This document shows, one piece after another, positions 13,515-52,385 of a stretch of 64,000 nt of DNA; position 1 is the stretch's first letter, and the number at the start of each line of letters is the position of its first letter. The notes under the pieces were generated by a model. That model was not told where the DNA came from, ran no database searches, and was given only the letters and a program-made list of their open reading frames with translations. Source of the DNA: Candidatus Woesebacteria bacterium (GTDB taxonomy: Bacteria; Patescibacteriota; Microgenomatia; UBA8517); assembly GCA_016432365.1 (NCBI GenBank), contig CP066686.1, forward strand, positions 273,771-337,770, given 5' to 3'. The translations under genes were made by a program, and so were the position numbers.

Positions 13515-13579
13515 AAAACTTGACCCACCTTCGCCAAGACTTCGTGGGGTCTGTATATTGCTTGTAGAGTCTATGGAAT

Positions 13580-13608
13580 TTGACTTTTAGCCTCAAATAT
13601 GCTACACT
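13580..13608 (+). promoter_or_regulatory. sigma70-like promoter TTGACT-17-TACACT
   Basis: Seen directly. Would give a roughly 350-nt leader before the cold-shock-domain gene. Confidence 0.4.
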
Positions 13609-13965
13609 ATCGGATACTTGAATTCCATATTTTGCTTGGGATTTAGGTTCAATTAGCTCATTAATCCCGTACAGAATTTACTTTGCGCCACGAACTACGT
13701 TTGTGCTCGCAAAGGGCTTTTTTACGGGATCTGCAGTGCTAGTCGCACTTTGACAAAAGAGAGATAAAGAACTCCTTTTAGCCTTGTTCCAGCAATAATT
13801 TCGCATTCGCCTTTTCAGCACTGTTCGTACACGGCTCTTGCCAAATTCTGACGGGACTTCGCTTCTGCATGCTTGAAGGCAGCACTCCGCGCATCTGTTA
13901 CAACTCGTGCTCGGAACGCTGCTCATTCAAGCGGCCTACCAATGGGTAGAAAAGGAGTGAGTGAT

Positions 13966-14583
13966 ATGGAAACCGGAACGGTAAAATGGTTCGACGCCCG
14001 GGAAGGTAAAAAGTTTGGCTTCGTGACGGCTGAGGATGGGAAAGAAATTTTCTTCCATTACAATGACGGAAGACCCATTCAGGTCAATGTCACAAAACGC
14101 CGAGTCGAGTTTTCCGACCAGCCTACGTTTCAGACCAAAGACGGAGTTCGCCGTCTTCGCGACCCCAAGCCCGGAGACAAAATCGTTTTTGTCAGGACGC
14201 AGGGTTACAAGGGTGATAAGGCATCGCCTTGGTCTTTCAAGTCGATCCACGACAAAGCAATCGACCAAATTGCCAAGTTGCCGGAACCGACTGTGTACCG
14301 AGCCCTCGAGACGATGAATAATGTCGGCGACGTGGCCGGTGAACCCAAGGTGTTGTGGGAAGGGTCCGATTTGGAAGCGCTCCTTGCCAAGTACCCAGTA
14401 CCTTCTGGTAGGCAGTCTCCCGGTTCCGATCCACTGATTCCGTATTATTCGGATTCAGACAATATCTTTGAGATTCGGCACTGGTTCGAGAAGAAGGTTG
14501 GAGAAATCTGGGAGCAATGCCCCGATCCACGCTTGCTGTCGGGAGCAAACCGACAGTTCGAACGTATCACCAACCGTTGGTAA
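13966..14583 (+). CDS. cold-shock domain (CspA-like) protein fused to an uncharacterised 140-aa C-terminal domain
   Basis: METGTVKWFD...KGFGFV RNP motifs of the CSD. Strong SD AAAAGGAGTGA 6 nt before the ATG. Locally GC-rich. Confidence 0.75.
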   Translation: METGTVKWFDAREGKKFGFVTAEDGKEIFFHYNDGRPIQVNVTKRRVEFSDQPTFQTKDGVRRLRDPKPGDKIVFVRTQGYKGDKASPWSFKSIHDKAIDQIAKLPEPTVYRALETMNNVGDVAGEPKVLWEGSDLEALLAKYPVPSGRQSPGSDPLIPYYSDSDNIFEIRHWFEKKVGEIWEQCPDPRLLSGANRQFERITNRW

Positions 14584-14698
14584 TCTCTCTTTAGAAATTT
14601 AAGTCTTGGGCCCTGGGGGTATTTTTTTTACTATACCTTCAGGGCCCGGTTTGTTTTATGAGGTTGACTTCCTGTTTCCCATGCTATACTTTAGATAC

Positions 14699-14893
14699 AT
14701 GTTTAAAAGCGTAATTGCACCAATGCAGGCCTGGCTACTTTCTCAGGGAAGATGTGTTGGTTGTGGTACAAATCTTTCTGAAGGCAAAAGTAAAAAAACA
14801 AAGTTTGGTGAACAAATTACATGCAAAAAATGCGGCAGAATCTTTATTAAAAAAGACAATAAATATAGAAGAGCTCTTCTAAACGAGGTTTAA
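14699..14893 (+). CDS. small zinc-ribbon protein (CxxC...CxxC)
   Basis: MFKSV... ORF with CVGCG...CKKCG. Promoter TTGACT-15-TGcTATACT sits directly upstream with its -10 box 8 nt before the ATG (leaderless). Confidence 0.45.
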   Translation: MFKSVIAPMQAWLLSQGRCVGCGTNLSEGKSKKTKFGEQITCKKCGRIFIKKDNKYRRALLNEV

Positions 14894-14918
14894 GTAAAAT
14901 TTGGTATACTAATCTTTC

Positions 14919-15869
14919 ATGAAAAAGTTATTTCTTTTGCTTCTAGTTCTAACTTTGGTTGCGGCAGCATCTATTGTTTGGTTTTACATCAATGTCCAAC
15001 CCGCAGGTACAAATAAAAACTTCAAAAATTTTCTTATCGAAAAAGGTGCTTCGGCTTCCAAAATTGGAACCAACCTAGAACAGGCGGGTTTTATTAAAAA
15101 TGCTTTGGCCTTTAAAATTTATGTAAAGTTCAGCGGACAGGATGGAAAAATTTTTCCCGGTGAATATAGACTTAATAGCGCCATGTCTATGTTCCAAATT
15201 GTCAGTCAACTGACCCGCGGACCGCTTGAGCTTTGGGTAACAATTCCTGAGGGGCTTAGACGAGAGGAGGTTGCTATGAGGTTTACAACAGGACTTGATC
15301 GGGATGCTGTGTTTACCAATGAATTTCTGCAAGCCTCGAAAAACTATGAGGGTAAACTCTTTCCTGACACCTATCTTTTTCCTAAAGACGCGAGCGCTTC
15401 TTCGATTGTAAACAAAATGACCAAGACCTTTGATTCAAAAACTTCAGGTCTTGTTGCGGGACCGGACTTAACATTCAATCAAAGAATTGTCTTGGCCTCA
15501 ATTCTTGAAAGAGAAACTAAAACCAGTGCAGAACGTCCAATTGTCGCCGGGATAATGATGAATAGAATTAGAGCGGGGATGCCTCTACAGGTAGACGCAG
15601 CAGTTCAATACGCTGTTGGAACATCCAAAAACTGGTGGCCTATATTGTCTCGAGATGACCTTCAAATCAATTCGCCTTTTAATACCTATAAATTTTCCGG
15701 ACTTCCCCCTGCCCCGATCGCAAGTCCGGGAATTTCAGCCCTTGAGGCGGCTTTTAGTCCGGCCTCTACCGAGTACTGGTACTATATACACGATAAAAGC
15801 GGAATAATTCATTACGCCGGGACTCTTCAGGAGCACAACGCAAACGTTGCGAAATATTTAGGAAAATGA
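14919..15869 (+). CDS. mltG: endolytic murein transglycosylase MltG (YceG-like)
   Basis: N-terminal TM followed by a YceG-like domain with the conserved acidic catalytic region. Confidence 0.85.
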   Translation: MKKLFLLLLVLTLVAAASIVWFYINVQPAGTNKNFKNFLIEKGASASKIGTNLEQAGFIKNALAFKIYVKFSGQDGKIFPGEYRLNSAMSMFQIVSQLTRGPLELWVTIPEGLRREEVAMRFTTGLDRDAVFTNEFLQASKNYEGKLFPDTYLFPKDASASSIVNKMTKTFDSKTSGLVAGPDLTFNQRIVLASILERETKTSAERPIVAGIMMNRIRAGMPLQVDAAVQYAVGTSKNWWPILSRDDLQINSPFNTYKFSGLPPAPIASPGISALEAAFSPASTEYWYYIHDKSGIIHYAGTLQEHNANVAKYLGK

Positions 15870-16118
15870 AGCTCTCAAACCTGACGGTCGGAGTATCTTC
15901 TCCCTAACTTCGTCGGGAGTGGAATCCCTTCGAAGCGGAACATTTTCGCTTATCCGCGGGCTAACGCCCGGGGTATTTGCGAAGGGGGATAAACCATATA
16001 TTTCCCCCTTGACCCTGCCACTACACTTACTTGCTCCCAAATACTACGTGTTTGCGTCGCAAGAGCGTGAGTGCGTGGTCTGCGCCCCAGCCAGAAACCT
16101 TGCAGTTCTAACTGGGGC

Positions 16119-16146
16119 TTGACATGAGGCTAAATACGGCTATAAT
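16119..16146 (+). promoter_or_regulatory. consensus promoter TTGACA-16-TATAAT for rpoBC
   Basis: Seen directly about 90 nt upstream of the rpoB ATG. Confidence 0.5.
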
Positions 16147-16234
16147 CCTCCCTAGGCGTACATGAATAGGTACGCTCGTCTCGCTTCGAATCTGCGGGCC
16201 TTTAGTGTTTAAAAATATAAAAATACCCACAAAA

Positions 16235-19200
16235 ATGACGTCAAAAAATATTCGCCGCAATTTCGGCAAGGATGAAAAAAACCTACCGATAATCAACCTA
16301 TCTGAAGTACAAACAGAAAGTTGGAAATTATTTTTGGGCGAGGGTATTAAAGAAGAGCTGATTCAAGTTTCCCCAATTGACGATTTTACAGGTAAAAATT
16401 GGCAACTCTCTCTTGGTGATCACTCCTTAGGTGCTCCGACAGTTTCTCCAATGACAGCCCAGAAAAAAGGAATCACTTATGCATGTCCTTTAAAAATCCG
16501 AGCTACCCTTGTAAATAAAAGAACAGGTAAAGAAGTAACCCAAGATGTGTTTTTGGGTGATATTCCTCAGATGACAACCCGTGGTACGTTTATAGTTAAC
16601 GGAATAGAACGTGCCGTTATCAATCAGATTGTAAGGTCCTCAGGAGCTTATTTTTCGGGCGAACTTGATCCATCAAGCGGCAGGGTGCTTTATAAGGCGG
16701 AGATTAGACCCTTACACGGCAGCTGGCTTGAGTTTGAAGTTACCAGAGGAGACTTGATTTACGCGAGAATTGACCGCAGGAGAAAAGTTTTAGCTACAGT
16801 ATTTTTGAGAGCTATAGGAGTCGAATCTGATCAAGACATTACCAACGCCTTTGAAGCGATGGATAAGAATCCGGATCATAAATATATTGCGGCAACACTT
16901 GCAAAAGATTCAACAAAGACCAGAGAAGAAGCTTTAATTGAGGTTTATAGAAAAATGAGACCCGGTGAACCCACAGTTTTGGAAAATGCTGAGGCTCTTT
17001 TCCAAACACTGTTTACAGACGGTAGAAGATATGATTTAGGAAAAGTTGGTAGATTTAAAATAAACAAGCGCTTGGGAGTTAACCTTCCAAACGACAAATC
17101 TACTTGGGTTCTTACCAAACAAGATGTAGTAGCTGCAATAAATTATCTTATCGGGCTTCAAAATGGAGTAGGAAAACTTGATGATATTGACCATTTGAGT
17201 AACCGAAGACTCAGGCGTGTCGGAGAGCTTGTGGCAGTAAACGCTTTCCGTGTCGGTCTTTTAAGACTCGAAAGATCGGTCAAAGAAAAGATGTCTTTGA
17301 TTTCACCCGACGATAAGCCCCTTCCCGCGAATCTTATTAATGCCCGTCCTTTGATAGCTTCACTTAACGAGTTTTTCAGAAGCAACCAGCTTTCAACAAT
17401 TTTAGATGACACGAATCCTTTGAGCGAGGTAGACAATCTTAGGCGTGTTTCCGTTCTTGGAACAGGTGGAATTAATCGTGAGCGCGCCAGCTTCTCTATT
17501 CGTGATGTCAACGCCTCACAATACGGCCGAATTGACCCGGTAAGATCACCTGAAGGACCAAACATCGGACTTGTTACTTACCTTGCTCTTTACGCCAAAG
17601 TTGACGAATTTGGTTTTATTCAAGCCCCGTATAGAAAAGTAGAGAAAGTGGGTAAAAAAGTAAAAGTAACAGACGAAGTTGTGTATCTTACTGCGGACGA
17701 TGAAGAAGATAAATATATAACTCACTCAGGAGTAAGTGTTGATAAAGATGGTTTTATCACAGATAGCAGAGTTCCGTTAAGATACATGGGTAAGTTTATT
17801 GAAGGCGCAGCGGAACTTGTTGATTATATTGACGTCACTCCAAGAGAGGTAGTCGGAGCCTCAGCCTCACTAATTCCTTTCTTGGCAAATGACGAGGGAA
17901 ACCGCGCCCTTATGGGAAGTAACATGCAATGTCAGAGCGTCCCGCTAGTTAACCCCGAGTCCCCAATTGTCGGAACAGGAATGGAAAGGACAATTTCTGA
18001 AGGTATGCAAAGAGTTATCCGCGCGAAACATGCCGGAGTTGTTGAATACATTGACGGTGAAAAGGTAATCGTTAAACTGGATAAAAAAGCTGAAACAGAT
18101 ACGACAGTTGATATTGAAGACACCGAAATTATCGATGGAGGCAAGAAAGAAGTCTACCATTTAACCAAATTTAAACGTACAGCCCACTCCACTGCATATA
18201 ATCAAATCTCCCGAGCTGTCCCTGATCAAAGAGTTGAGGTCGGAGATTTGTTGGTTGACGGTCCTGCAAGCCAGGATGGTGAGCTTGGACTTGGCCGCAA
18301 TCTTGTTGTCGCTTACGCCAACTTTGGTGGTTATGGTTTTGAGGACGCCATATTAATTTCAGAAAGACTTGTTAAAGAAGATTTGCTGACTTCAATTCAC
18401 ATCGAAGAATATGAGGCAGAGGTCGTTGATACAAAACTTGGTCCCGAAGAGATTACAAACGATATTCCTAATGTTTCTGAATCCGAACTGGCCAATCTGG
18501 CCGGAGATGGAATAGTAATGATTGGGGCGCAAGTTGGGCCGAATGACATTTTGGTCGGTAAAATAGCTCCCAAGGGTGAAACAGAACTTACTTCAGAAGA
18601 AAGACTTCTTAGAGCAATTTTTGGTGAGAAGGCCCGCGAAGTGCGAGATACCTCTCTCCGTGTTCCCCATGGCGAAAAAGGAATAGTGGTTGATGTCCAA
18701 ACACTTGATCGTGATAAAGGCGACGAGCTTGGGCCGGGGGTAATACAAAAAGTAATAGTCAGGGTTGCTCAAATCAGAAAAATTACAGTTGGAGATAAGG
18801 TGGCCGGACGCCATGGTAACAAAGGAGTTGTTGCCAAAATGATGCCTGTTGCAGACATGCCCCATCTTGCCGACGGAACTCCCGTCGATGTAGTTATTTC
18901 TCCTCTTTCTGTTATTTCCCGTATGAACCTTGGTCAGTTGATGGAGACACATCTTGGTTGGGCTTTGTACAAAAAAGGTGAAAAAGCAGCCCTTCCCGTT
19001 TTTGACAAAATTGGCGGGGACGCGATAGCCAAGGAATTGGAAAGCGCAGGTCTTGCGGTAAACGGTAAGTCACGTCTCTATGACGGTAGGACAGGTGAGG
19101 CTTTTAAGGAAGATACGGTAGTTGGAGTTGGATACATAATGAAGCTTATCCACATGGTGGAGGACAAGACACACGCCCGTTCAACCGGTCCATACTCGCT

Positions 19201-19603: not shown

Positions 19604-19615
19604 AATCAAACACTT

Positions 19616-23338: not shown

Positions 23339-23339
23339 T

Positions 23340-24290: not shown

Positions 24291-24812
24291 ATGCCTGAAC
24301 AACAGGAATTTGGACCTGACACATTCGAAGTTTATACAGAAAAAACTCTTCAAAAACTATCTTCGTTTAATTTTAAAGATTTAACCAGATATTTAAACAC
24401 AGATAAAATAGGATCGTATTCATTCAATATACCCACGGATAAGGCGGAGAATGAAAAGTTAACGGATTTTGTTACAACGGTTTTGGAATTATCGAGACTC
24501 GCAGGCATTAAGGAGAACGGTGTGGCTAGAAAAGACGTTGAAGACGTATTGGAAAAAGTTAAAAAAGGTGATTTTTTGTTACTGAAAAGTCACGCCTCAG
24601 AGGAAGGTGCTATTGTAGATGTCTGCCTCTCACTGGCAAGAGACAAAAAAACACCTCAAGGGAGAATCCCCCTTCCGTTTACAGGTGGAAACCTTGGTAT
24701 TTGGGTAAACGCTAACAAAAGCATTTCTTTTACAGGAAATAGACGTTATGATCATGCTGCGATCATGCTTACAAGTGTTTCAAAAAAAATGAATCTCAAG
24801 ATTTCTGATTGA
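24291..24812 (+). CDS. hypothetical protein inserted between rpsG and fusA
   Basis: Only long ORF in a 640-nt gap of the otherwise conserved str operon. Native-like composition, no motif. Confidence 0.5.
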   Translation: MPEQQEFGPDTFEVYTEKTLQKLSSFNFKDLTRYLNTDKIGSYSFNIPTDKAENEKLTDFVTTVLELSRLAGIKENGVARKDVEDVLEKVKKGDFLLLKSHASEEGAIVDVCLSLARDKKTPQGRIPLPFTGGNLGIWVNANKSISFTGNRRYDHAAIMLTSVSKKMNLKISD

Positions 24813-24915
24813 ATTGAGGTGTTTGTCCTGTTACAATCACACTTGCTCCTAATTGGAGCTTTTCTGTGTCTGGTGTTTTCTAATCACTATTCACTAATAA
24901 CTATTAACTATTTTT

Positions 24916-28720: not shown

Positions 28721-28749
28721 TTGACTCTTGGCCTCATTTGTGTTATCAT
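28721..28749 (+). promoter_or_regulatory. promoter TTGACT-17-TATCAT of inserted mini-gene
   Basis: Seen directly. Precedes an SD-ATG at 28795. Confidence 0.4.
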
Positions 28750-28794
28750 TCCCCAACTTACATTCTGTAAGAATCTTGCACTTTGGAGGCATAA

Positions 28795-29094
28795 ATGATT
28801 TCTGTTAAACCTATCAACAATGCGCAATCGTTGGAAGTTAGGAAAAAGAAGTTCGGTCTGGAAATTGAATTGACTGCCATTTTTGGTCTCGGTATCACGA
28901 CCAAGGCGAAAATTTCCACGAGAGATTTGAAAGCCAGCCTTGAACAGCCGATTGGCGAACATCGTGATTTCGACGGATCTCTAAGGCGAGTGGTTCGGAC
29001 CGGTTTCAATCACACCCATCTTTTTTTCAAACCGAACAGCAATAACGACCTAGTTGTGGTCGAAACATCGGATCTACTGATCGCAATAAGTTAA
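28795..29094 (+). CDS. hypothetical 99-aa protein (autonomous inserted gene)
   Basis: GGAGG SD 7 nt upstream of the ATG, with its own promoter and intrinsic terminator. Locally about 48% GC. Confidence 0.55.
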
Positions 29095-29117
29095 GCATCA
29101 TTGAAATACAAGTCAGT

Positions 29118-29158
29118 AGCCCTGAACAATCAGCAATACGTTCAGGGCTATTTTTTTG
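29118..29158 (+). terminator. Rho-independent terminator (10-bp stem AGCCCTGAAC/GTTCAGGGCT plus T7)
   Basis: Perfect inverted repeat followed by ATTTTTTTG. Confidence 0.65.
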
Positions 29159-29199
29159 TCCTTCGACTTCGCTCAGGATCTTCGAGTCATCGAGCCTGA

Positions 29200-29228
29200 T
29201 TGACGTTCGTCTCAGGATGATATATAAT
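29200..29228 (+). promoter_or_regulatory. promoter TTGACG-17-TATAAT for rplC and downstream S10-operon genes, followed by a roughly 160-nt structured leader
   Basis: Seen directly. The leader contains GCGCC-TTCGG-AGGCGC tetraloop hairpins. Confidence 0.45.
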
Positions 29229-29394
29229 TCCCCTCATGACATCCTCATCGGATGAATAGATAGTCTTCGTAAGATGCCTTCGGGCGCCTTCGGAGGCGCT
29301 CGTTTAATGACGGTTGGAATCACCAGCTGGTTTCAGAACATATGATAAGTGAACTTCGCTTTAAGCGTAAGCCCGCCTTGTCATTCGCAGACTC

Positions 29395-34077: not shown

Positions 34078-34326
34078 ATGAAAGTATTTACAGGAAGAGT
34101 AATCGCAACAAAAATGGCCAAAACAGCAACGGTCGCCGTGGAGCGTGTTGTAATACACCCTTTGTACAAGAAAAGGTTTATGAGGGATACAAAATATCAG
34201 GTTCATGATGAGAGTGGGGTAAAAATCGGAGATGTTGTTAAATTCACGGCCAGTAAGCCTTACTCAAAGACAAAGAAATGGAAAGTTTTGGAAGTAGTTA
34301 ATCGGAAAGGAGAAGCTAGTAGCTAG
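34078..34326 (+). CDS. rpsQ: 30S ribosomal protein S17
   Basis: Typical S17. Confidence 0.9.
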   Translation: MKVFTGRVIATKMAKTATVAVERVVIHPLYKKRFMRDTKYQVHDESGVKIGDVVKFTASKPYSKTKKWKVLEVVNRKGEASS

Positions 34327-34350
34327 ATTCTAGTAACTAGTGACTAAAGT

Positions 34351-38080: not shown

Positions 38081-38150
38081 TCAAAAAAAAGACACCCCCT
38101 TTATAATCCTTGCGGATAACCTTATTACAGGTTGGGGGTGTTGTTTTACA
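38081..38150. terminator. bidirectional intrinsic terminator (A-run, 8-bp GC stem ACACCCCC/GGGGGTGT, T-run)
   Basis: Seen directly. Serves rplO on the plus strand and the convergent 38179-38862 gene on the minus strand. Confidence 0.5.
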
Positions 38151-38178
38151 CTTTGCGGGTTTGTTGTGTTTGGTTTTA

Positions 38179-38862
38179 TTACTTGTTGGAAATGGCGATG
38201 TTGTTGCCGAAAACTTTCTTGAAAGCTTCAACAACGTTGTCTACAATCGACATGTGATTGTCGTCGAGTTCAGTCCAACTGAAGGCGTTTGCAATCTCGA
38301 CGCGCGCCTCGTAAGGCTGTATTGAAACTTGTGTGACGCCCGGGATCTGCATAACGATGCGGACAAATTCTCCGCCGCCATCAATGCCGACCTTGCGTAG
38401 ATACTCAAGGCTGGAAATCCGAAGTGGACGCTGGAAAGTCTCATAGCGTGTATTCGAGATTTCAAAGTTGGTGGCGAAACCCCGAAGCCGATCGTTTGGA
38501 TAAGTCTCAATGACAAGTCTTTTCCGGGGATGTAGCTCGTCATACCTTGCTTGAAATGCCTTTTTGACAATCTGGTCGATCTTTTCGTTCCAGAGCGTTC
38601 GACGTCCGAAGGAATCTTTCTCCTTCAGGTAGATCGCAACTTCATATGGTTCAACAAAAATATGGTCAACCCCATCGATCTGGCGCAGTTCCTGAACCAT
38701 CTCGGCTACGATACGGTCATGGTCGCGAAGAGCTTCGAGGTGCAAACTTCGAGCCGAACCATGGGACGTATAGAGCGAGATGTTTTGCTTGCCGATTTCC
38801 ACATTAGTTGAGAAAGTTCTCCCCAACGCGTGGTGCACACGAACATTGAATATCAGTTTCAT
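38179..38862 (-). CDS. hypothetical 228-aa protein with internal tandem duplication (two domains of about 110 aa), inserted on the opposite strand between rplO and secY
   Basis: SD GGAGAAAG before MKLIFNV.... Own promoter and terminator. Locally about 48-50% GC. Repeats aligned by eye (IFVEPYEVAIYL / VSIQPYEARVEI and others). Confidence 0.6.
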   Translation of the reverse strand: MKLIFNVRVHHALGRTFSTNVEIGKQNISLYTSHGSARSLHLEALRDHDRIVAEMVQELRQIDGVDHIFVEPYEVAIYLKEKDSFGRRTLWNEKIDQIVKKAFQARYDELHPRKRLVIETYPNDRLRGFATNFEISNTRYETFQRPLRISSLEYLRKVGIDGGGEFVRIVMQIPGVTQVSIQPYEARVEIANAFSWTELDDNHMSIVDNVVEAFKKVFGNNIAISNK

Positions 38863-38945
38863 AATCTTTCTCCGATTTCTCATCATCATCAGAATAGAAT
38901 TTCCGAAGCCAAAACCCGCAATTTCAACGTGCAAAACCGAACCGC

Positions 38946-38974
38946 ATTCTATAACAACCACACATCAAAGTCAA
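38946..38974 (-). promoter_or_regulatory. promoter TTGACT-17-TAGAAT (minus strand) for the inserted 228-aa gene
   Basis: Reverse complement read directly from the sequence. Confidence 0.45.
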
Positions 38975-39039: not shown

Positions 39040-40323
39040 ATGTTTAATTCAATAATTCACTTTTTTGATAAAGCGGTCAAAACCCCCTCTATCAGGAGAA
39101 AATTACTAGTCACTGCCGGGGTCTTGATTATCTTTAGGCTTGCAGGGCATATTCCGGCAGCCGGTATAAACAGGGAAACTTTGACCGCTCTTTTTAACGG
39201 GAGTCCTCTTCTTTCGCTTTTAGATGTATTTTCAGGCGGAACTTTGGCCAACTTTTCCATTCTTGCACTGGGGCTTAACCCTTACATCAATGCCTCGATT
39301 ATTTTTCAGATGTTGGGCTATGTGATTCCGAGTCTGGAAGCACTTCAAAAAGAAGGGGAATTTGGTCAGGAAAAAATCAATCAATACACACGACTTTTAA
39401 CAGTCCCATTAGCCGCTCTTCAGGCTTTTGGAATGTATGCCCTTTTGAAGGGTCAGCAGGTTATCCCAAACTTGGAACCTGTAGCTCTTTTGTCATTAGT
39501 AATAACTATGACTGCAGGTACCGTTTTTGCTGTTTGGCTTGGAGAACTAATTAGCGAATACGGTTTTAAAAATGGAGTTTCCATTCTGATCTTCACCGGA
39601 ATTGTTGCGCGTTTACCCATCACTTTAGGGCAATCGGCTAGTGTTGTTCAGTCGCAAGACGTTCTCAAGGTGATAATTTTCTTGGCGGTTGCAGTTGTTA
39701 TTGTTGGACTTGTGATTTTCATCAGCGAAGCGGCACGTCAAATTCCGATTCACTATGCCAAAAGAAGGACAGAAAGCGGGCTTGCCTCAACTTCTTATCT
39801 TCCTCTTCGTCTTAATCAGGCCGGAGTAATCCCTATAATTTTTGCCGTATCTTTGGTTCTTTTACCCTCGCTCTTGGGTCAGTTTTTGGTAAATGTTCCC
39901 AACGCTGCGGTTGCCAATATTGCCCGAACGATCAGTACGGCTTTTAACCCCCAATCACTTACTTACAACTTGGTATATTTCTTTTTGGTTTTCGGATTTA
40001 CCTATTTTTATACGGCAGTTGTCTTTAACCCAGAAAAAATTTCTGAAGATTTGCAAAAAGGTGGAGGTTTTATCCCCGGAATTCGTCCCGGCAAGGAAAC
40101 GGCAAAGTATCTTTCTTTTGTTCTTGCCCGTTTAACTGTGGTGGGTGGGGCATTTTTGGGAATGGTGGCCATTTTGCCGTCATTTTTCCAGAGTTTTGTC
40201 GGAGTACAAAGCCTGGCCATTGGAGGAACTAGTATCTTGATTGTTGTTTCTGTAGCCCTAGAAGTAATTCGTGAGATTGAAGGTGAAATGGTTATGGGTA
40301 AATACGAAGGGCTAATACGATGA
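39040..40323 (+). CDS. secY: preprotein translocase SecY
   Basis: 10 TM segments and conserved SecY blocks. Confidence 0.9.
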   Translation: MFNSIIHFFDKAVKTPSIRRKLLVTAGVLIIFRLAGHIPAAGINRETLTALFNGSPLLSLLDVFSGGTLANFSILALGLNPYINASIIFQMLGYVIPSLEALQKEGEFGQEKINQYTRLLTVPLAALQAFGMYALLKGQQVIPNLEPVALLSLVITMTAGTVFAVWLGELISEYGFKNGVSILIFTGIVARLPITLGQSASVVQSQDVLKVIIFLAVAVVIVGLVIFISEAARQIPIHYAKRRTESGLASTSYLPLRLNQAGVIPIIFAVSLVLLPSLLGQFLVNVPNAAVANIARTISTAFNPQSLTYNLVYFFLVFGFTYFYTAVVFNPEKISEDLQKGGGFIPGIRPGKETAKYLSFVLARLTVVGGAFLGMVAILPSFFQSFVGVQSLAIGGTSILIVVSVALEVIREIEGEMVMGKYEGLIR

Positions 40324-40955
40324 ACATTTTACTAATGGGCCCTCAGGGATCGGGTAAAGGTACTCAGGCTGCAAAAATTTGTGAAGAATTCGGCTTTTTT
40401 TATTTTGAATCCGGCTCATATTTGAGAAGAATTGCGGAAACCGACCCCTGGCTTAAAGATTGGTTGAATACAGGAAAACTAGTACCTGACAAAGAATTAA
40501 CTTCCTATCTTTCTGCGTTCTTAGATAAAAACAACCTATATGATGATATAGTTTTTGATGGATTTCCTAGGACTGTTGTTCAATATCATTTTTGGAAAGA
40601 CTGGCTTAAAGACAAGGGTGTTAGTCTGGATCTTGTTTTTGTACTCAAGATAAGCAGCGAAGAAACTGTCAGAAGATTGTCAGCCAGAAGACAGGATCCA
40701 GAGAACGGAAAAATATATAACCTTATTACAGACCCACCGCCTGCAGATATAAATGTAAGTACATTGATTCAAAGAGAGGATGACAAACCGGAGGCTATCA
40801 AGGTGCGTCTGGCCTATTACCACAACATAACGGAGCCTTTAATAGCTGAATTAAAAAAGGATACAAAAGTTGTCGAGGTGGATGGTGAGCGCCCGATTGA
40901 CGCAATCTCCAAAGATCTAATAGAAATAATTAAAGAAAATGGCCATAAAAATTAA
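40320..40955 (+). CDS. adk: adenylate kinase
   Basis: GPQGSGKGTQ P-loop, LID and NMP-binding regions. Confidence 0.9.
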   Translation: MNILLMGPQGSGKGTQAAKICEEFGFFYFESGSYLRRIAETDPWLKDWLNTGKLVPDKELTSYLSAFLDKNNLYDDIVFDGFPRTVVQYHFWKDWLKDKGVSLDLVFVLKISSEETVRRLSARRQDPENGKIYNLITDPPPADINVSTLIQREDDKPEAIKVRLAYYHNITEPLIAELKKDTKVVEVDGERPIDAISKDLIEIIKENGHKN

Positions 40956-41691
40956 AACTCCGGAAGAAATTCAAATTATGGCCGAGGGGGGTAAAAAACT
41001 TGCTCGAGTAAAGAATGCCCTCAAAGAGGCTGTCAAAGCCGGGGTGCGCGCTTCAGATATCGAAAAACTTGCAATGGACTTGATCCACGCGGAAGGGGCT
41101 GAAGCCTCTTTTGCCAAGGTGCCTGGTTACTCCTGGGCCACTTGCATTAATGTTAACGAAGGCCTGGTTCACGGAATTCCGAGCCGGGACATGATTTTTA
41201 AGGACGGAGACCTTGTTAGCGTAGATGTTGGAGTCTATTTTAAAGGCTTCCACACGGACACCTCCACTTCTGTCGGAATAAATTTGAGCCCGGAAAATAA
41301 GAAATTTCTCAATATCGGCCAAAATGCCCTAGAAAAGGCAATCTCGAAGGTAAAGGTTGGTAACTATATTTATGATATCAGCCAGGCCATAGAGACGACT
41401 ATAGAGGCTGCAGGGTACACTACAATAAAGGCACTGGTAGGACACGGGGTGGGCCATGAACTTCACGAGGATCCCCAGATTCCCTGTTTTGTACCCGGTA
41501 AAGTTAGCGACAGCCCTGTTATAAAAGAAGGAATGGTCTTGGCGGTTGAGGTAATGTATGCTCAGGGGAAGGATAAAGTGGAGATTTTAGAAGACGGGTG
41601 GACAATAGCCATGACTGATGGTAAAATAGCAGGACTTTTTGAAGAGACCGTTGCGGTGACCGGGAAAGGAGCATTAGTTCTCACTCGATGA
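40939..41691 (+). CDS. map: methionine aminopeptidase type I
   Basis: Pita-bread fold with metal ligands D, D, H, E, E. Confidence 0.9.
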   Translation: MAIKIKTPEEIQIMAEGGKKLARVKNALKEAVKAGVRASDIEKLAMDLIHAEGAEASFAKVPGYSWATCINVNEGLVHGIPSRDMIFKDGDLVSVDVGVYFKGFHTDTSTSVGINLSPENKKFLNIGQNALEKAISKVKVGNYIYDISQAIETTIEAAGYTTIKALVGHGVGHELHEDPQIPCFVPGKVSDSPVIKEGMVLAVEVMYAQGKDKVEILEDGWTIAMTDGKIAGLFEETVAVTGKGALVLTR

Positions 41692-41903
41692 AAAACCAAA
41701 GTACAGTTGAAGTTGATGGGGCCGTTTTGCAAGCATTGCCCAATACGATGTTCCGGGTACAGCTTACAGATGGCAGACTCATCCTGGTAACTTTGAAGGG
41801 GAAAATGAGGAGGGCTTATGTTAGAATATTCCCCGGCGATAGAGTGAAGGTGGAAATGACGCCGTACGACGAGAACAGGGGAAGGATAATATACAAATAT
41901 TAA
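41688..41903 (+). CDS. infA: translation initiation factor IF-1
   Basis: S1-like OB fold, 71 aa. Confidence 0.9.
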   Translation: MKNQSTVEVDGAVLQALPNTMFRVQLTDGRLILVTLKGKMRRAYVRIFPGDRVKVEMTPYDENRGRIIYKY

Positions 41904-41964: not shown

Positions 41965-42078
41965 ATGAAGGTTATTAGTTCGATTAAAGCACGATGTAAA
42001 GATTGTAAGATTGTTAAGCGCCACGGGGTGCTTTACATCGTTTGTAAAAACCCGAGGCACAAACAACGCCAGGGATAG
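41965..42078 (+). CDS. rpmJ: 50S ribosomal protein L36 (C4 zinc type)
   Basis: [37 protein letters not shown]. Missed by the ORF track because it is under 60 aa. Confidence 0.85.
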
Positions 42079-42150
42079 TAACTAGAAATTAGAAACTAGA
42101 CACTAGTTAAAAACTAGCTTCTAGCTTCTAGCATCTAATAGCTAGAATTT

Positions 42151-45578: not shown

Positions 45579-45579
45579 A

Positions 45580-45990: not shown

Positions 45991-46024
45991 AGTACGGCAA
46001 CTTCTTTGTTATACTGTTTTAAGC

Positions 46025-47086: not shown

Positions 47087-47128
47087 GTTAATCCTGCAAA
47101 ATAATTGTTTTTATGATATTAATTAACA

Positions 47129-47641
47129 ATGGAGATCGGATTGATAAGCTCTTCAGATATGATGGACCTCCCCGACTACTGGGAGAAAAGACGTGAACTA
47201 TACATCAAGATATCGGACAACTCTAAATTTCAGGAAAATATGAAGAATAATAAAGAAAAGTGGACTCAAGAATTACTGAAAAGATACCCAAACCTTACAT
47301 CTAGTAAAGACAGTTTAGAAGAATCGATAAGAAGTGTAACCTTTATCGACTATTTGGTAAGAAACGAACTTCATACGGCAGATGCTCCATTTTTGCAACC
47401 TCGAGATGCAAATTCAAGTGACCCGATGCAAAAAACAGGGATTGAAGATTTGGTTGAAAAGTTCGTAAATGGTGACTTTGCCGCTGCAAGTGAGCAAGTT
47501 CAAAATGGCATTGAACTTATTGATAACAGCGCATTTTCTGTTGGACACAATATTCATATGGGTTTATTGGCACTTCACATTCTCCGAGAGGAGGCTGTGG
47601 GACTTCGCGGACATTTAAAAGCTTTAGAAAAGTCTAAATAA
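47129..47641 (+). CDS. hypothetical protein (170 aa)
   Basis: ORF only. Confidence 0.45.
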   Translation: MEIGLISSSDMMDLPDYWEKRRELYIKISDNSKFQENMKNNKEKWTQELLKRYPNLTSSKDSLEESIRSVTFIDYLVRNELHTADAPFLQPRDANSSDPMQKTGIEDLVEKFVNGDFAAASEQVQNGIELIDNSAFSVGHNIHMGLLALHILREEAVGLRGHLKALEKSK

Positions 47642-47691
47642 TTTCTTTCTGGGCACCGTGATGACCTTAAAATATTTGGTATACTTCAGAC

Positions 47692-48135
47692 ATGTCAGGT
47701 GAAAGGTTTACATTAAGAGTGGCGGTCTATCTTGTTTTGATTAAGAATGGTAAAACACTTCTTTCCAGGAGATTTAACACCGGCTGGATGGATGGAAAAT
47801 ATAGTTTAATAGCTGGCCACATTGACGGGAAAGAGTCGGTTTTTGGTGCTATGATCCGCGAAGCATTCGAGGAGGCGGGGATAAAAGTTTTAAAAAGCGA
47901 CGTGAAACCGTTGAAAGTGCTTCATAGAATGTCCGATGATGGTATGGAATATATGGACTTCTTTTTTATTGCCGAAAGATGGGAAAGGGAGCCAATAATT
48001 AAGGAACCAGATAAATGTGACGATATGGGTTGGTTTCCGGTTAACAATCTGCCTGACAATACTTTGCCGTACGTTAGATATGTGATTGAAAATTTCGAGG
48101 ATGGAGTTTCTTTCGTAGAATTTGGCTGGGATTAG
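47692..48135 (+). CDS. NUDIX hydrolase
   Basis: Nudix box GHIDGKESVFGAMIREAFEEAGI. A -10 box TATACT lies 6 nt before the ATG. Confidence 0.85.
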   Translation: MSGERFTLRVAVYLVLIKNGKTLLSRRFNTGWMDGKYSLIAGHIDGKESVFGAMIREAFEEAGIKVLKSDVKPLKVLHRMSDDGMEYMDFFFIAERWEREPIIKEPDKCDDMGWFPVNNLPDNTLPYVRYVIENFEDGVSFVEFGWD

Positions 48136-48166
48136 TTATCCTCAAATTAATCTGTTAAAATACGCA

Positions 48167-48189
48167 TGAGCGGTGTAGTTTTACCGGTA
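48167..48189 (+). repeat. direct repeat of the tRNA-Pro 5' end (GCGGTGTAGTTTTACCGGTAAG) within the tRNA leader
   Basis: Matches positions 3-24 of the downstream tRNA. Followed by GATGGGT/ACCCATC and GGTGC/GCACC hairpins but no T-arm. Confidence 0.4.
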
Positions 48190-48264
48190 AGCTTCGATGG
48201 GTCCCCACCCATCTCAGGTGCTTCGCACCAAGCTTGGCCGCTAAACTCCACCCCTCGTATAACT

Positions 48265-48335
48265 CGGGGTGTAGTTTACCGGTAGAATGGGCGCATGGGG
48301 TGCGTCCGGACTGAGTTCAATTCTCAGCACCCCGA
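48265..48335 (+). tRNA. tRNA-Pro (anticodon GGG), 71 nt, CCA not encoded
   Basis: Hand-folded cloverleaf. 7-bp acceptor stem with C1:G72, U8, D-loop ACCGGUA, anticodon stem GGCGC/GCGUC with loop AUGGGGU (U33, G37), 4-nt variable loop, T-arm CUGAG-UUCAAUU-CUCAG, discriminator A. Confidence 0.6.
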
Positions 48336-48337
48336 CT

Positions 48338-49390
48338 ATGTTTGCAGACTCTTTCGGTTTTGAAAATTTGGTGGCTGGTAGCCATGTAGTTTTTAAGGAA
48401 AGAGCACTTCAACTTACCCAAGCGGAGCGTGAAGTCAAAATAGACAATGCACGAAAACTCTACGCGGGAGTAGAGGTTCTTCGGAGATTTAGAAACGAAG
48501 CGCTATCAGAACAGGGTTCAAATCGACAAAAGGTGTTATCTGAGGCACACAAGTTTTCAGAATATATGGCAGGGACAATTTTAGATCTGTCATTACCAGA
48601 AAAGCCAATTTCTTGCAGTCCTCAGGTTCTAAAAAATATTCAAGATGTTCAAGGGAGGCTTCAAAATAAAAATGCAAGTTCTTATCATTCTAACCCGCCT
48701 TCAACTGTCGTACACAATTTATTCAGAGCTACCGAAGACATGCTTGTCAGGATAGAAGAAAAAGCCGGATCCGTTGTCAGTCCAGATCATAAATTATCAG
48801 CCGACGAGCTAAAATATGTACTTGTCGAATTTCTTTCAGGGACAAATATGTTGCCGAGAGATGCTATTGGAAAGTTTTTTAACAAATCCTCAAAAATCGG
48901 TGGAATTTTAAGTGGGGGGAGTGTTTACCTGGAAATTGTCAAAAAGGTTGTAGAAAAGTATGGGAATGGTTTTACAATCAAGACATTTGTTATTGCTGTA
49001 GATAAAGAAAAAAAGGTGGTGGCTTATGAGCAGGGGTCGAATGATGACAAGGTCGCTGACGTAATCTTAACCGACGATATGATTGATAGAGGGGGGACAA
49101 TGACCACGGCGCTTCAAAATGCCGGCGGAACTTTTCAAAACGCTACAATCTATTCGGGTAATGGTCGTGAACTGCCCGGGGAATTTCAGAAAAGGCAAAC
49201 TCAAAAACGAATGGGTCATTTAACAATACTATTTCAGGATTATGCAGATCTATCTATGGCAGGTAAATATGTCGATGCAGATAGGATTTTTGAGCAGGCG
49301 AATTCTTATGCTAAAGATAACGGAGTAGAGCTTCAGCCTGGTTGGTATATAAGAAAGGCAAAGATTGACGAACTTCGCAAGAGAAAGTAA
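48338..49390 (+). CDS. hypothetical protein with C-terminal type-I phosphoribosyltransferase (PRTase) domain
   Basis: PRPP-binding motif VILTDDMIDRGGTMTTA and a preceding GGILSGG PPi loop. Start moved to 48338 because the ORF-track start lies inside the tRNA. Confidence 0.6.
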   Translation: MFADSFGFENLVAGSHVVFKERALQLTQAEREVKIDNARKLYAGVEVLRRFRNEALSEQGSNRQKVLSEAHKFSEYMAGTILDLSLPEKPISCSPQVLKNIQDVQGRLQNKNASSYHSNPPSTVVHNLFRATEDMLVRIEEKAGSVVSPDHKLSADELKYVLVEFLSGTNMLPRDAIGKFFNKSSKIGGILSGGSVYLEIVKKVVEKYGNGFTIKTFVIAVDKEKKVVAYEQGSNDDKVADVILTDDMIDRGGTMTTALQNAGGTFQNATIYSGNGRELPGEFQKRQTQKRMGHLTILFQDYADLSMAGKYVDADRIFEQANSYAKDNGVELQPGWYIRKAKIDELRKRK

Positions 49391-49446
49391 TGAGTTGAGT
49401 TTTCCTTCTTGCATTTTGTTTGGTGCCATAGTACAAATGTAGCGTA

Positions 49447-50532
49447 ATGGTGAAACACAAAAAACCCGAAACTGAGGCTCCAACTAAACAAGAAGGTGGC
49501 GCACAAAAATTGGCTGCAATCCGACTTGCGATGGACCAAATCGAAAAACAATACGGTAAGGGAAGTATAATGCGCCTCGGTGGAGACAGCGGTGAGAAAT
49601 TTAAGTTTGATGTAATTTCCACGGGCTCCATAGCGGTTGATTTGGCACTTGGAGTGGGTGGTTTCCCAAGAGGCCGAATTATAGAAATCTATGGCCCTGA
49701 AGCTTCGGGCAAAACCACATTGGCTCTTTCTGTTATTGCTGAAGCTCAAAAAATGGGCGGACAATGCGCTTTTGTAGACGCAGAACACGCCTTGGATCCT
49801 ACACGTGCGGAAATTTTGGGGGTGGATCTGGATAATCTTTTAATGTCCCAACCGGACACTGGTGAACAAGCTTTGGAAATCACGGAAACTTTAATTCGTT
49901 CAGGTGCGATAGATGTGGTTGTAGTTGATTCGGTTGCCGCACTTGTGCCGAGAGCGGAACTTGAAGGAGAAATGGGTGACAGTGTTATGGGAATGCAGGC
50001 CCGTTTAATGTCTCAAGCCTTGAGAAAACTTACCGGTGCAATTTCAAAATCAAAAACGGTTTTGATATTCACCAACCAACTTCGCCAAAAAATCGGTGTT
50101 ATGTTTGGCAACCCGGAAACAACCCCCGGAGGACTTGCGCTTAAATTCTATTCGTCAGTTCGCATAGATCTAAGAAGAATTGAAGTTCTTAAAGATGGGG
50201 AAAAAGTGATTGGTTCAAGACATCGTGCAAGGATAGTCAAAAATAAATGCGCCCCTCCCCTTAGGGTTGCCGAGTTTGACATAATGGAAACAGAGGGAAT
50301 AAGTAGATTTGGTGGAATTCTGGATGTGGGTCTTGAGTTGGGGCTAATCGGCAAAAACGGATCTTTCTTTAATTACGATGGCAAGCCAATAGCTCAAGGC
50401 AAAGAAGCGGCAAAATTGTACTTAAAAGATAACTCTAAAGTGGCTGACGAAATTGACAAAAAGATTCGCGACCTAGTTGCTTCCGGTAAACCTCTGCCAA
50501 AAGAAATTGGTGAAGAAAATAAAGAAGAATAA
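49447..50532 (+). CDS. recA: recombinase RecA
   Basis: Walker [10 protein letters not shown] and L1/L2 loops. Short N-terminal extension. Confidence 0.95.
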
Positions 50533-50539
50533 TTTTTAA

Positions 50540-51217
50540 TCAGATTCTGTTGTATTGGTGAAACCTTGGTGATTGTGGACAGTTTTTGGCCCCGCCCAGC
50601 CCACTGAATGTAGCTGGTTTATAGCCGGTAACTCTCTCCAAAGCCCCGATAAAATCTTTCACTTTGCCAATTATCTCTTCAAACGGAATGTCTTCTGGTT
50701 TATCGAATTGTCTAAAGTGGGGATTGGGCTCGTCACCTTTTTCGGAAAAAGAGATTTTAAACATGGTTTTCCTCCACCGTTCAATTGTGTCCTCCCGCTT
50801 TTGATAATTCCCCATTTTTTCGGCAAACTTATCGCTTATTGCCGCCTTTTCCCTTGAACTAACAGCTGTTTCAAGTTCCATTTCGAACTCTTTGATGTTT
50901 GGTTCTTCAATACTCTGTTCAACGAGCTGTACCTGATCAAGTAGTGCGACATGGACATCTTTACAAGAAGTCGTCGGATAATATGTTGCTGCTTCTAGGT
51001 AGTGGATTACTCCATCTGAATAATGCGTGTTTGTCATTTTCTCGCCGCAAAAAGTATTTGGATCTAAATCAATTCCTGCAAGCGACGCTCCAATTTGAAT
51101 AAGTTTTGTATGGGGACACCAAGGTTTTTCCCCGTGGCCTTCCGGGAAATTAACAGGAATAATCGGTTCAAACTCCAACATACTGGCGATTGTAGTTTTT
51201 AGTGAATATAATGTCAA
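50540..51217 (-). CDS. hypothetical protein (possible LAS/M15-like zinc hydrolase; weak)
   Basis: PHT...GASLAGIDLD and IHY segments faintly resemble the VanY/M15 SxHxxGxAxD and ExxH motifs. Inference only. Confidence 0.45.
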   Translation of the reverse strand: MTLYSLKTTIASMLEFEPIIPVNFPEGHGEKPWCPHTKLIQIGASLAGIDLDPNTFCGEKMTNTHYSDGVIHYLEAATYYPTTSCKDVHVALLDQVQLVEQSIEEPNIKEFEMELETAVSSREKAAISDKFAEKMGNYQKREDTIERWRKTMFKISFSEKGDEPNPHFRQFDKPEDIPFEEIIGKVKDFIGALERVTGYKPATFSGLGGAKNCPQSPRFHQYNRI

Positions 51218-51852
51218 GCATGCCGCAAATAACTTCTATCAAACAACAAAAAGCTAAAAATAGAGTCAATGTGTATTTGGACGACAAATTTGGGTTTGGA
51301 ATAGATCTCGATAATTTTGTGTTGCTTCACCTCAAAATTAATCAGGAACTGACGGATGAAGAAGTCGTGGAAATTGTTAAAAAAGCCGAATTTCAAAAGA
51401 CATTGGATAAGCTTCTCCGTTTTGCGACCCTCAGACCAAGAAGTGAAAAAGAAGTGAATGATTATTTTCGGCGTAAAAAAGTCCACGAGAGTATGTGGGA
51501 ACCACTTTTTGAAAAACTTAAACACTTTGAACTTATAGACGACCTTAAATTTGCCAAGTGGTGGGTAGATCAACGCCAAAATTTTAAACCCAAACCAACC
51601 AGAATTTTGAAGATCGAACTTACTCAAAAAGGCATAGTCAAAGAAATTATAGAAAATGTACTGGGGGAAACAAAAGTTGATGAAGAAAAAATGGCACGAG
51701 AACTTCTGACTCGAAAGGCGTACAAATGGAAAGGTTTAGAACCGCGTTTAACGCGGCAAAAAATGTCGCAGTATTTGGCAGGAAAAGGGTTTGGATGGGA
51801 TTTAATTGAGAAGATTGTAAAAATTGCAGTGGGTGACAAACATCTTTTGTGA
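51202..51852 (+). CDS. recX: RecA regulator RecX
   Basis: Three-helix repeat architecture (NVYLDD.F.F..., FAKWWVDQR). Start ambiguous between 51202, 51211 and 51220. Confidence 0.8.
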   Translation: MNIMSSMPQITSIKQQKAKNRVNVYLDDKFGFGIDLDNFVLLHLKINQELTDEEVVEIVKKAEFQKTLDKLLRFATLRPRSEKEVNDYFRRKKVHESMWEPLFEKLKHFELIDDLKFAKWWVDQRQNFKPKPTRILKIELTQKGIVKEIIENVLGETKVDEEKMARELLTRKAYKWKGLEPRLTRQKMSQYLAGKGFGWDLIEKIVKIAVGDKHLL

Positions 51853-51885
51853 CGTTGTCACCCACTTTGTTGCTAAATTTTTTCG

Positions 51886-52215
51886 TTAAACCAGCTCAGG
51901 TTTGAAATAGTCGTCGGTGTGTGGAAAAGTGTATCCTGCCCACTCATCGGACGCTGTTTCCAAGGATGCCGAAAATGGCAACCAACCAACTCTTGTGTCG
52001 CCCATCACGATATCCATAACTCTGGACGTTCCCGGGTTGTTGTTTAACCAAAAGGTCAGCCTCATTTCTACCAAAGCCCCTGCCTCGTGGTGTTTTGGAT
52101 CGACCTTTCGCAAGAACCTCATTGGGTCCTCGATGCCTCTTGAAAGAAGCACCCGTACGAAAGCAGCCTGGGCAGCACCAACACTTGCGGTAATCTCTAT
52201 CGCTATCGCTGACAT
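51886..52215 (-). CDS. hypothetical 109-aa protein, GC-rich with SD
   Basis: About 50% GC. AAGAGGAG SD before the ATG. No motif recognised. Confidence 0.45.
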   Translation of the reverse strand: MSAIAIEITASVGAAQAAFVRVLLSRGIEDPMRFLRKVDPKHHEAGALVEMRLTFWLNNNPGTSRVMDIVMGDTRVGWLPFSASLETASDEWAGYTFPHTDDYFKPELV

Positions 52216-52385
52216 TGTAAAACTCCTCTTCCCGTCTCGGGAAATTGTGAGACTCGTCTCGAGTCTAGGGTGTGCGAGTGGCGTCGATTTCAGCCAAACT
52301 TAGGCAGTATAGCACAATCAGCCTCAAAAGTCAATAATTATGGGGTACGATTGAAACCATATTTTGGATATGTTATATTGGCGTT

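Follow-up and report, generated by a model that had tools for sequence, protein, structure and literature searches.

Five small genes in a 64-kb stretch of Candidatus Woesebacteria DNA (NCBI GenBank assembly GCA_016432365.1, contig CP066686.1, positions 273,771 to 337,770; hereafter the window, numbered from its first nucleotide) are each preceded by a strong Shine-Dalgarno (SD) motif, in a region whose core genes mostly lack one. We designate these genes A, B, C, D and F, and put at roughly 0.6 the probability that they are portable, self-contained, SD-led cassettes from a flexible gene pool of the candidate phyla radiation (CPR), lodged at variable junctions and exchanged among relatives. 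All five are lineage-restricted accessory genes that do not belong to a single system, three of them (B, D and F) being orphans. A first-pass annotation, made from the letters of the window, had singled out A to D for their SD motifs and deviant composition, and had proposed that they are recent acquisitions from an SD-using donor, possibly a common one, and perhaps parts of one dispersed function. CPR bacteria are uncultivated and their translation-start signals are poorly described; a full-text literature search turned up no paper combining Shine-Dalgarno, leaderless and Patescibacteria.

SD-led genes in an SD-poor window

The window has a GC content of 41.6% and carries rpoBC and the str, S10, spc and alpha ribosomal clusters, plus alaS, recA, recX and rny. 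Judged from its sequence, the host is a CPR bacterium (Candidatus Woesebacteria). In the genome collection, the species representative nearest to it is a Patescibacteria metagenome-assembled genome (MAG; locus L002), with 88% identity in ribosomal protein L16, and a Microgenomates MAG comes next. Among the loci compared, L141 is the closest long relative, with core genes at 93-100% amino acid identity and a dS (synonymous substitutions per site) of 0.55-0.85, and L084 belongs to a more distant lineage. Start signals and composition were scored over a curated table of 76 genes, about 15 of whose starts had been corrected against conserved N-termini. SD here means a sequence motif, called where the core of an AGGAGG sub-motif lies 4-10 nt from the start codon; the 3' end of 16S rRNA, with its anti-SD, and the rpsU gene lie outside the window.

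An SD core occurs at this spacing in 9 of the 76 genes, compared with 6% of random positions. A TATAAT-like hexamer (at least five of six positions) ends 4-10 nt before the start in 18 of the 76, a rate of 3-5% being seen at random positions or across all ATGs; the 18 genes all lack an SD. The window is SD-poor and often leaderless in type, as the first-pass annotation had described it. The nine SD-bearing genes are F, A, B, C, D, a further small gene E, the native rpsC (AGGAGG, 9 nt) and rpmC (GGAGG, 8 nt), and ABC_perm2, an ABC permease gene with GGAG. All five SD strings and start codons named earlier, those of A to E, were verified at their positions, and gene C was borne out with its location, its product being 227 aa long and not 228. 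The statement that the only strong SDs belong to the four deviant genes did not hold, given the strong and well-spaced motifs of rpsC and rpmC and the GGAG of ABC_perm2. SD-like motifs at 12-16 nt were also seen for rplD, rpsK and rpsI. The idea that SD simply tracks the presence of a leader was considered and rejected: native rplC and rpoB have leaders, of about 160 and 80 nt respectively, and no SD, so SD is not a mere consequence of having a leader.

The genes concerned also stand apart in composition. The six highest values of GC content at third codon positions (GC3) belong to A (.587), C (.548), D (.536), infA (.528), F (.500) and B (.470), over a background of about.36. An SD is present in five of the six genes with GC3 of 0.47 or more versus 4 of the 70 others (Fisher p = 3.9e-5); the concordance between translation signal and composition is real once GC3 and codon usage are quantified gene by gene. 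The atypical genes have GC3 z-scores of +2.4 to +5.0, and C, A, B and D fit the native codon table worse than all other genes, a composition and codon usage such as acquired cassettes would have. The description of A to D as four GC-rich deviants was apt for A, C and D. B is mildly deviant, with an overall GC of.433 versus.416 for the window and a departure confined to GC3 and codon usage; F is a fifth member that had been missed; and infA (41688-41903) is a native gene of high GC3. The lowest core dS relative to L141 (.32) is also that of infA, so high GC3 and low dS can coexist here in a vertically inherited gene. As a contrast set, the orphans hyp173 (24291-24812), hyp129 (52386-52775) and hyp67 are AT-rich and without SD, two of them with a leaderless-type -10; SD and high GC3 are therefore not a general trait of orphans. 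The window is split between core genes that are leaderless in type or SD-less and small orphans that are SD-led and GC3-rich, at least three of these orphans sitting at variable junctions.

Cassettes at junctions of the ribosomal protein clusters

Gene B (28795..29094, plus strand) encodes a 99-aa orphan in the interval between rpsJ and rplC. Its promoter and leader (28721..28794, plus strand) consist of TTGACT-17-TATCAT, a leader of about 40 nt containing the hairpin CTTACAttcTGTAAG, and GGAGG at 28785-28789. An intrinsic terminator (29118..29157, plus strand), AGCCCTGAAC...GTTCAGGGCT followed by T7, closes the S10-L3 variable region on the right; this edge is conserved, and beyond it comes the rplC promoter. 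The B protein has no match in Pfam, PHROG, NCBIfam or PADLOC. A homologue 47-49% identical, found through synteny and without an effective remote-homology search for B, occupies the same slot in L137, L139 and L140. The leaders of these homologues show 1 nt of difference in 40 from that of B, and nucleotide similarity ends about 90 nt into the open reading frame (ORF); between the coding sequences dN (nonsynonymous substitutions per site) is.52 and dS is saturated, versus a flank dS of.4-.8.

The cargo at this junction varies among close relatives, also among genomes with an S10 protein identical to that of the window. In L137, L139 and L140 the B homologue is followed by two further SD-led small ORFs. 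L136 and L138 have instead a YafQ toxin-antitoxin pair and a 55-aa SD-led ORF, L002 has an epimerase and two membrane proteins (envelope genes), and in L003 the junction is empty. The terminator hairpin of B (29117-29150) recurs in L136 (4771-4804) and L138, and is found twice in L137 (3947-3980 and 4499-4532) and L139, the L137 copies lying after the second and third small ORFs. A hairpin duplicated in this way may serve as a recombination point for cassette gain and loss. The neighbouring gene rplC has a strong promoter of its own, TTGACG-17-TATAAT (29200-29228), which splits the S10 cluster after rpsJ, and a leader of about 160 nt (29158-29394; L137 4533-4759) that is conserved, GC-rich and contains stem-loops. 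That leader matches no Rfam family and may be a ribosomal-protein autoregulatory element.

Gene C (38179..38862, minus strand; 227 aa) lies in the rplO-secY interval on the strand opposite to the spc cluster. Upstream (38863..38974, minus strand) are TTGACT-17-TAGAAT (38974-38946) and a leader of about 77 nt with GATGATGATGAGAAATCGGAG and GGAG at 38873-38870; downstream is a terminator (38083..38141, minus strand), ACACCCCC...GGGGGTGT followed by T8. The product, a predicted tandem-repeat protein, carries an internal two-fold repeat (...PGV..V.I.PYE..V...FSW...) and belongs to a family of which five clusters are known. The window protein has no Pfam match, one homologue alone gives a faint match to Nfu_N (PF08712), a profile search of the PDB returned nothing relevant, and the structure model, from a five-sequence alignment, is poor (predicted local distance difference test, pLDDT, of 49).

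The L15|secY junction holds C in the window and in L083 and L084, with leader and SD conserved. It is empty in L002 and L003, and in L141 an rRNA adenine dimethylase gene (RrnaAD) and a TrpR-type helix-turn-helix gene stand in place of C. Between the window and L084, C has a dS of 0.36 and a dN of 0.09 (dN/dS of about 0.25), and the neighbouring secY fragment has a dS of about 2.4. Identity over 38110-38950, the span from the terminator of C to its -10/promoter region, is 82-98% (97-98% over 38110-38229), and falls to 58-70% in the flanks. Since C is present in the distant L084 and absent from the closer L141, its history is at odds with relatedness. Elsewhere in the spc cluster, adk (40320-40955) is 66% identical to its L141 counterpart with saturated dS, beside secY, map and infA at 94-100%, and looks like another replaced or fast-evolving gene.

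Genes D and F

Gene D (51886..52215, minus strand; ATG at 52215) encodes a 109-aa orphan in the slot running from recX to hyp129 and rny. Its promoter and leader (52216..52334, minus strand) comprise TTGACT-17-TATACT (52334-52306) and a leader of about 84 nt with the hairpin CCCGAGACGGG (52241-52231) and AGGAG at 52227-52223. A search of 1.84 billion representatives yielded four clusters of small-protein homologues and, in addition, weak matches to two repeat proteins: P0039 (5227 aa), matched by D over 17 stretches (E = 2e-23), and P0041 (591 aa), probably a low-complexity repeat and not a true relative. D occupies the recX-rny slot in L091-L095 as well, in two allele types, with hairpin and SD retained and with proteins 36-70% identical. 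Between the window and L092-L095, identity is 36% for the D protein, 90% for rny and 77% for recX, and an allele 70% identical fills the same slot in L091. For type I, dN/dS is.21; in type II orthologues the same leader stands before a gene of native GC3 (.37). Between D and rny, hyp129, an AT-rich gene with a leaderless-type promoter, is absent in L092, and a 137-aa ORF with no detected similarity to it takes its place in L091. Just 49 nt of sequence 5' of rny (52820-52868) are 94% identical in the latter locus.

Gene F (207..637, minus strand), outside the range covered by the first-pass annotation, encodes 139 aa (626-207) behind AGGAG at 637-633, spaced 6 nt from the start, and has a GC content of.48. 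It lies beside a metallophosphoesterase gene and is syntenic in L131-L135 at 86% amino acid identity, with a dS of.53 versus 1.0-1.4 for its flanks and a dN/dS of.16. In L131, F is followed by another GC-rich SD-led gene, of 104 aa, inside whose counterpart the window starts, and Fic and Bro-N genes occur in the region beside F. SD and leader are conserved for F; promoter and terminator anatomy was mapped for A to D only. The dN/dS values of.16-.25 for C, F and D type I mark these as real proteins under purifying selection.

Gene A, a cold-shock-domain fusion

Gene A (13966..14583, plus strand) encodes a 205-aa protein with a cold-shock domain (CSD; Pfam PF00313) that has a five-stranded OB fold and RNP1/RNP2-like motifs KKFGFV and IFFHY. 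About 35 residues are inserted within the CSD, which is followed by some 110 residues that make up a conserved C-terminal domain of unknown fold family. With a confident structure model (pLDDT 90), A is predicted to be a cold-shock-domain nucleic-acid binder with an extra domain. It differs from single-domain proteins of CspA type (about 70 aa), scoring 21-32 bits with NCBIfam Csp models whose cut-offs are 82-152. Homologues elsewhere are non-syntenic and occur in contexts rich in toxin-antitoxin genes and insertion sequences (IS) on CPR-type contigs.

A promoter-like site upstream of A (13580..13608, plus strand), TTGACT-17-TACACT with an extended TG, implies a 5' untranslated region (UTR) of about 350 nt; in L085 and L086 TTGACT-type sites lie about 215 nt 5' of the start of the A homologue. 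The leader (13615..13965, plus strand) contains a 21-bp hairpin (about 13875-13926), the short hairpin CCTACCAATGGGTAG and then AAAAGGAGTGAGTGAT, with AGGAG at 13953-13957. The z-score of its RNA fold is -4.2, and among four sequences 7 of the 21 pairs of the long hairpin are kept through compensatory changes. AAGGAGTGAGTGATATG is invariant among the closest A homologues, which are about 50-84% identical. More widely, a C-poor tract of the form (GTGA)n-AGGAG(G) is common to 22 distinct A leaders, GTGA occurring 2.5 times per 35 nt versus 0.12 in random 35-mers from the same loci. A search of Rfam gave nothing credible in the A leader, the (GTGA)n-AGGAG tract matching no family, and the CSD-fusion family with its conserved leader is a candidate new cis-regulatory element.

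A 67-nt element is present twice in the window at 79% identity, at 13789-13855 in the A leader and at 54462-54528 in the space separating E from the HU gene. The core of the element forms an imperfect palindrome, AATTTCGCATTCGCC...GGCTnnTGCCAAATT, and both copies lie 5' of genes for nucleic-acid-binding proteins. A 28-nt piece of the element is found downstream of rpsI in relatives (partial copy in L141, 9377-9404, minus strand).

In the A family the gene is GC-richer than its flanks at all 18 loci examined (mean excess +0.12, range +0.04 to +0.19; Wilcoxon p = 2e-4), and GC3 reaches 0.83, though dS between members is saturated. Because the excess persists at saturated dS, it is not simply undecayed donor composition, and recent acquisition, to which the GC excess had been attributed, does not account for it. 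Orthologues of C and F keep GC3 at.50-.58. High GC3 may rather be a property of this gene pool, the candidate causes being a GC-richer and more SD-using CPR source, GC-biased gene conversion, and selection at synonymous sites. Elsewhere in Microgenomates an SD core is found at 8 of 22 mapped starts in L002 and at 3 of 7 in L010 (GC 51%); SD-richer Microgenomates of this sort are a possible donor pool.

A proposed mechanism of exchange

Genes A to D share the -35/-10 pattern TTGACT-17-TAnnnT, with leaders of about 350, 40, 77 and 84 nt, respectively, a hairpin just 5' of the SD, and an SD spacing of 5-8 nt; a clear intrinsic terminator is seen for B and C. Orthologues keep the SD and the adjacent hairpin or leader even where proteins are 36-49% identical. 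We propose that each of the four would act as an autonomous unit, made of a host-type sigma-70 promoter, a hairpin leader, an SD and an ORF, to which B and C would add a terminator. B and C would sit at core-operon junctions (S10|L3 and L15|secY) that carry different cargo in close relatives, and recX|rny, with D, would be a third variable slot. Units or alleles could then be swapped by recombination through conserved flanks, leaders and terminators, and such exchange would leave cassettes with histories that differ from those of flanking genes. The SD would travel with the cassette. A leaderless start would need an exact spacing between promoter and ATG, and an SD should work from any transcript that covers it, which would suit a portable gene. 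We infer exchange among related CPR bacteria from patterns of divergence and of presence and absence, and the mechanism likewise, since no mobility machinery accompanies the cassettes.

Alternative explanations

Several observations favor exchanged cassettes. Presence is patchy at conserved loci among close relatives (S10|L3 and L15|secY, in L002, L003, L136, L137 and L141), and the histories of C, F, B and D are incongruent with those of flanking core genes, in comparisons that use short fragments of the flanks and to which constraint at synonymous sites may have contributed. The first-pass suggestion that these genes lie outside the stable core is upheld to that extent: C is patchy, B and D are replaced by alleles 47-49% and 36% identical beside flanks 77-100% identical, and A is non-syntenic. 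A number of points weigh on the other side. No integrase, transposase, tRNA-adjacent site, or terminal direct or inverted repeat was found at the window cassettes, a repeat search around them returning only low-complexity A-rich and CTAG repeats plus the 67-nt repeat. None of the 18 A-family loci examined has a GC-rich host context, flanking DNA being always AT-richer, and a GC-rich donor pool was therefore not found. The low dS of C and F could come partly from constraint on synonymous sites, as the case of infA illustrates, and not from recent exchange, and rapid evolution in place could account for the extreme divergence seen in B and D; dS is unreliable on alignments that are 36-49% identical. 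The flanks of C were compared with L084 through a 118-codon fragment of secY on a 1.6-kb contig, and all counts of start signals and composition come from 64 kb of a 1.08-Mb genome. Other observations would suit the main rival, a native specialised regulon, vertically inherited at variable loci, in which SD, structured leader and GC-rich codons are under selection for a distinct translation regime (stress, cold or a conditional anti-SD), comparable to rpsU of Bacteroidia. SDs and leader hairpins are better conserved than coding sequences, high GC3 persists in orthologues from a dS of 0.5 to saturation, native infA likewise joins high GC3 to low dS, A is a CSD protein with a long structured leader, and Bacteroidia supply a precedent (PMC9976891, PMC7797042). 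A regulon inherited in this way should track relatedness, however, and C, found in L084 and not in the closer L141, does not; nor is A syntenic between genomes, and the native GC3 of D type II behind the same leader means that high GC3 is not required for the regime. We consider such a regulon unlikely, if well worth keeping in mind.

The proposal of the first-pass annotation, that the four genes came in recently from a single foreign donor, or from a few, GC-richer and SD-using, and are perhaps parts of one dispersed function, draws on the joint deviation of composition, codon usage and SD and on the absence of the genes from some relatives. It is hard to reconcile with the homologues, which, wherever placed, lie in CPR-type or Woesebacteria-syntenic DNA, with positional orthologues of C, D, F and B that carry the same SD and leader, with the GC excess that A keeps across members at saturated dS, and with the host-type TTGACT-17-TAnnnT promoters of all four. 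A single donor or function finds no more encouragement: the A to F proteins show no detectable mutual similarity, homologues of B to F are absent within 4 kb of 38 A-family loci, and family sizes range widely, from about 5 to 26 or more clusters; homologues of B and F do share one 143-kb contig of a relative, each at its own syntenic position. Foreign import is, in our estimation, improbable, and an origin as morons or defence modules left by CPR phages slightly more so. Phage morons have a similar self-contained promoter-gene-terminator architecture, toxin-antitoxin genes occupy variable sites of relatives, Fic and Bro-N genes adjoin F in L131, and the CSD of A has weak matches, confined to the domain level, with PADLOC CSD_V and a model of a retron effector. 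A, C and D, however, have no relatives in 2.9 million viral contigs, PHROGs, PADLOC and NCBIfam gave no match beyond the generic CSD, a BFVD fold search with the A model gave no viral match at E <= 0.001, and no phage genes flank any window cassette. Least credible of all is an artefact, in which spurious ORFs in GC-rich non-coding RNA or spacer are joined to chance SD motifs. GC-rich DNA does yield long spurious ORFs, such as one of 63 aa in the RNase P RNA gene of the window, and GGAG-type motifs are somewhat likelier in GC-richer DNA; but the dN/dS of C, F and D type I, the Pfam domain and confident model of A, invariant W, P and G columns in the protein families, the SD position kept in orthologues and the lack of any Rfam match in cassette regions speak against it. 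For A, C, D and F an artefact is all but refuted; the case for B depends on a single homologue family.

Beyond portable cassettes, a broader scheme may be entertained, which we hold to be doubtful. SD-led initiation would serve mainly the circulating small accessory cassettes, the core being leaderless or SD-independent, and both GC3 and the near-invariant leaders would be actively maintained, by selection or GC-biased gene conversion. These would be two regimes, possibly gated by the anti-SD as in Bacteroidia, in this Woesebacteria lineage and perhaps in wider Microgenomates, and the maintained leaders may include the (GUGA)n-AGGAG tract with the covarying hairpin of the CSD-fusion family. 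Were the split to hold genome-wide, SD plus GC3 would be a cheap sequence marker of the flexible pool, gene callers with a single initiation model would handle these genomes badly, and an explanation would be needed for why mobile genes of AT-rich genomes keep a GC excess, when island signatures usually run the other way.

Other features of the window

Gene E (54231..54446, plus strand) encodes 66 aa (54246-54446) behind the extended SD AAGGAGGTG at 54231-54239, with its ATG at 54246. It is a singleton cluster, and as previously noted it bears an SD and has native-like composition. Neither E nor F could be assigned to a family in Pfam, PHROG, NCBIfam or PADLOC. On the 5' side of E are a promoter-like site (54111-54139) and then, just before the SD, a perfect terminator-like hairpin with T-run (54189-54218), which either terminates rny or serves as an attenuator in the leader of E.

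Directly 5' of many native starts are stop-codon-rich, low-complexity spacers of CTAG/TAG units, for example CTAGTTACTAGTAACTAG (7689-7713, 13092-13116, 34323-34347, 42075-42137, 52910-52936, 24880-24915 and 12360-12400). Analogous tandem heptamers, (AGAACTA)n and (AACTTTC)n, lie upstream of rpsM, secY and rpsC in the Levyibacteria locus L006. Such spacers may be unstructured regions for SD-independent initiation or intergenic translation insulators. The contrast orphan hyp173 (173 aa) separates rpsG from fusA, which are adjacent in L003. RNase P RNA is the only Rfam match in the window: the gene (59761-60111, minus strand; bacterial class A, 105.9 bits) is the source of the GC-rich 63-aa ORF (59823-60014), and three copies of a 33-nt repeat (59590-59793) adjoin or overlap its end.

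Comparison with known systems

CspA-family cold-shock proteins have long regulatory 5' UTRs. A resembles them in its cold-shock fold, its RNP motifs and its long, strongly structured leader, and differs in its 205-aa length, the insertion in its CSD, its C-terminal domain and a leader motif outside Rfam. Integrons are arrays of gene cassettes, and L137 recalls them with its tandem small ORFs and an imperfect-palindrome element that occurs twice, after the second and third ORFs. Here, however, the repeated element is an ordinary terminator hairpin with T-run, there is no IntI or attI, and the first L137 cassette has its own promoter. Phage morons are autonomous promoter-gene-terminator units between conserved genes. 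The cassettes likewise each have a promoter, with a Rho-independent terminator in B and C, and lie between conserved neighbours, sometimes on the opposite strand; unlike morons they belong to a cellular chromosome and lack a phage context, and searches with A, C and D found no viral homologues.

A parallel of another kind is offered by Bacteroidia, whose ribosomes are SD-blind and in which an SD is kept on rpsU for autoregulation (PMC7797042, PMC9976891, PMC13000453); in a survey of CPR ribosomes, the anti-SD motif was reported as frequently lost only for one Parcubacteria subgroup (PMC9297842). As in Bacteroidia, SD is largely avoided in the window (9 of 76 genes) and a small set of genes has strong, conserved SDs, which by analogy suggests that the SD-keeping set may have a special translational status. 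In contrast to Bacteroidia, first genes in the window often look leaderless and do not depend on A-rich leaders, and SDs are borne by accessory orphans, together with rpsC and rpmC, in place of rpsU.

The closest counterpart is in the concept of flexible genomic islets in pangenomes, which are hotspots of recombination and integration between core genes. The cassettes differ from these in being single small genes with no integrase, tRNA or IS at the window sites, in having two variable sites inside the S10-spc ribosomal protein cluster, and in carrying cargo GC-richer than the host; genomic islands are usually AT-richer than theirs. They agree with islets in using the same inter-operon junctions for different cargo in close relatives, in atypical composition, and in a history unlike that of their flanks, and we rate them as a kind of flexible genomic islet, a class already known.

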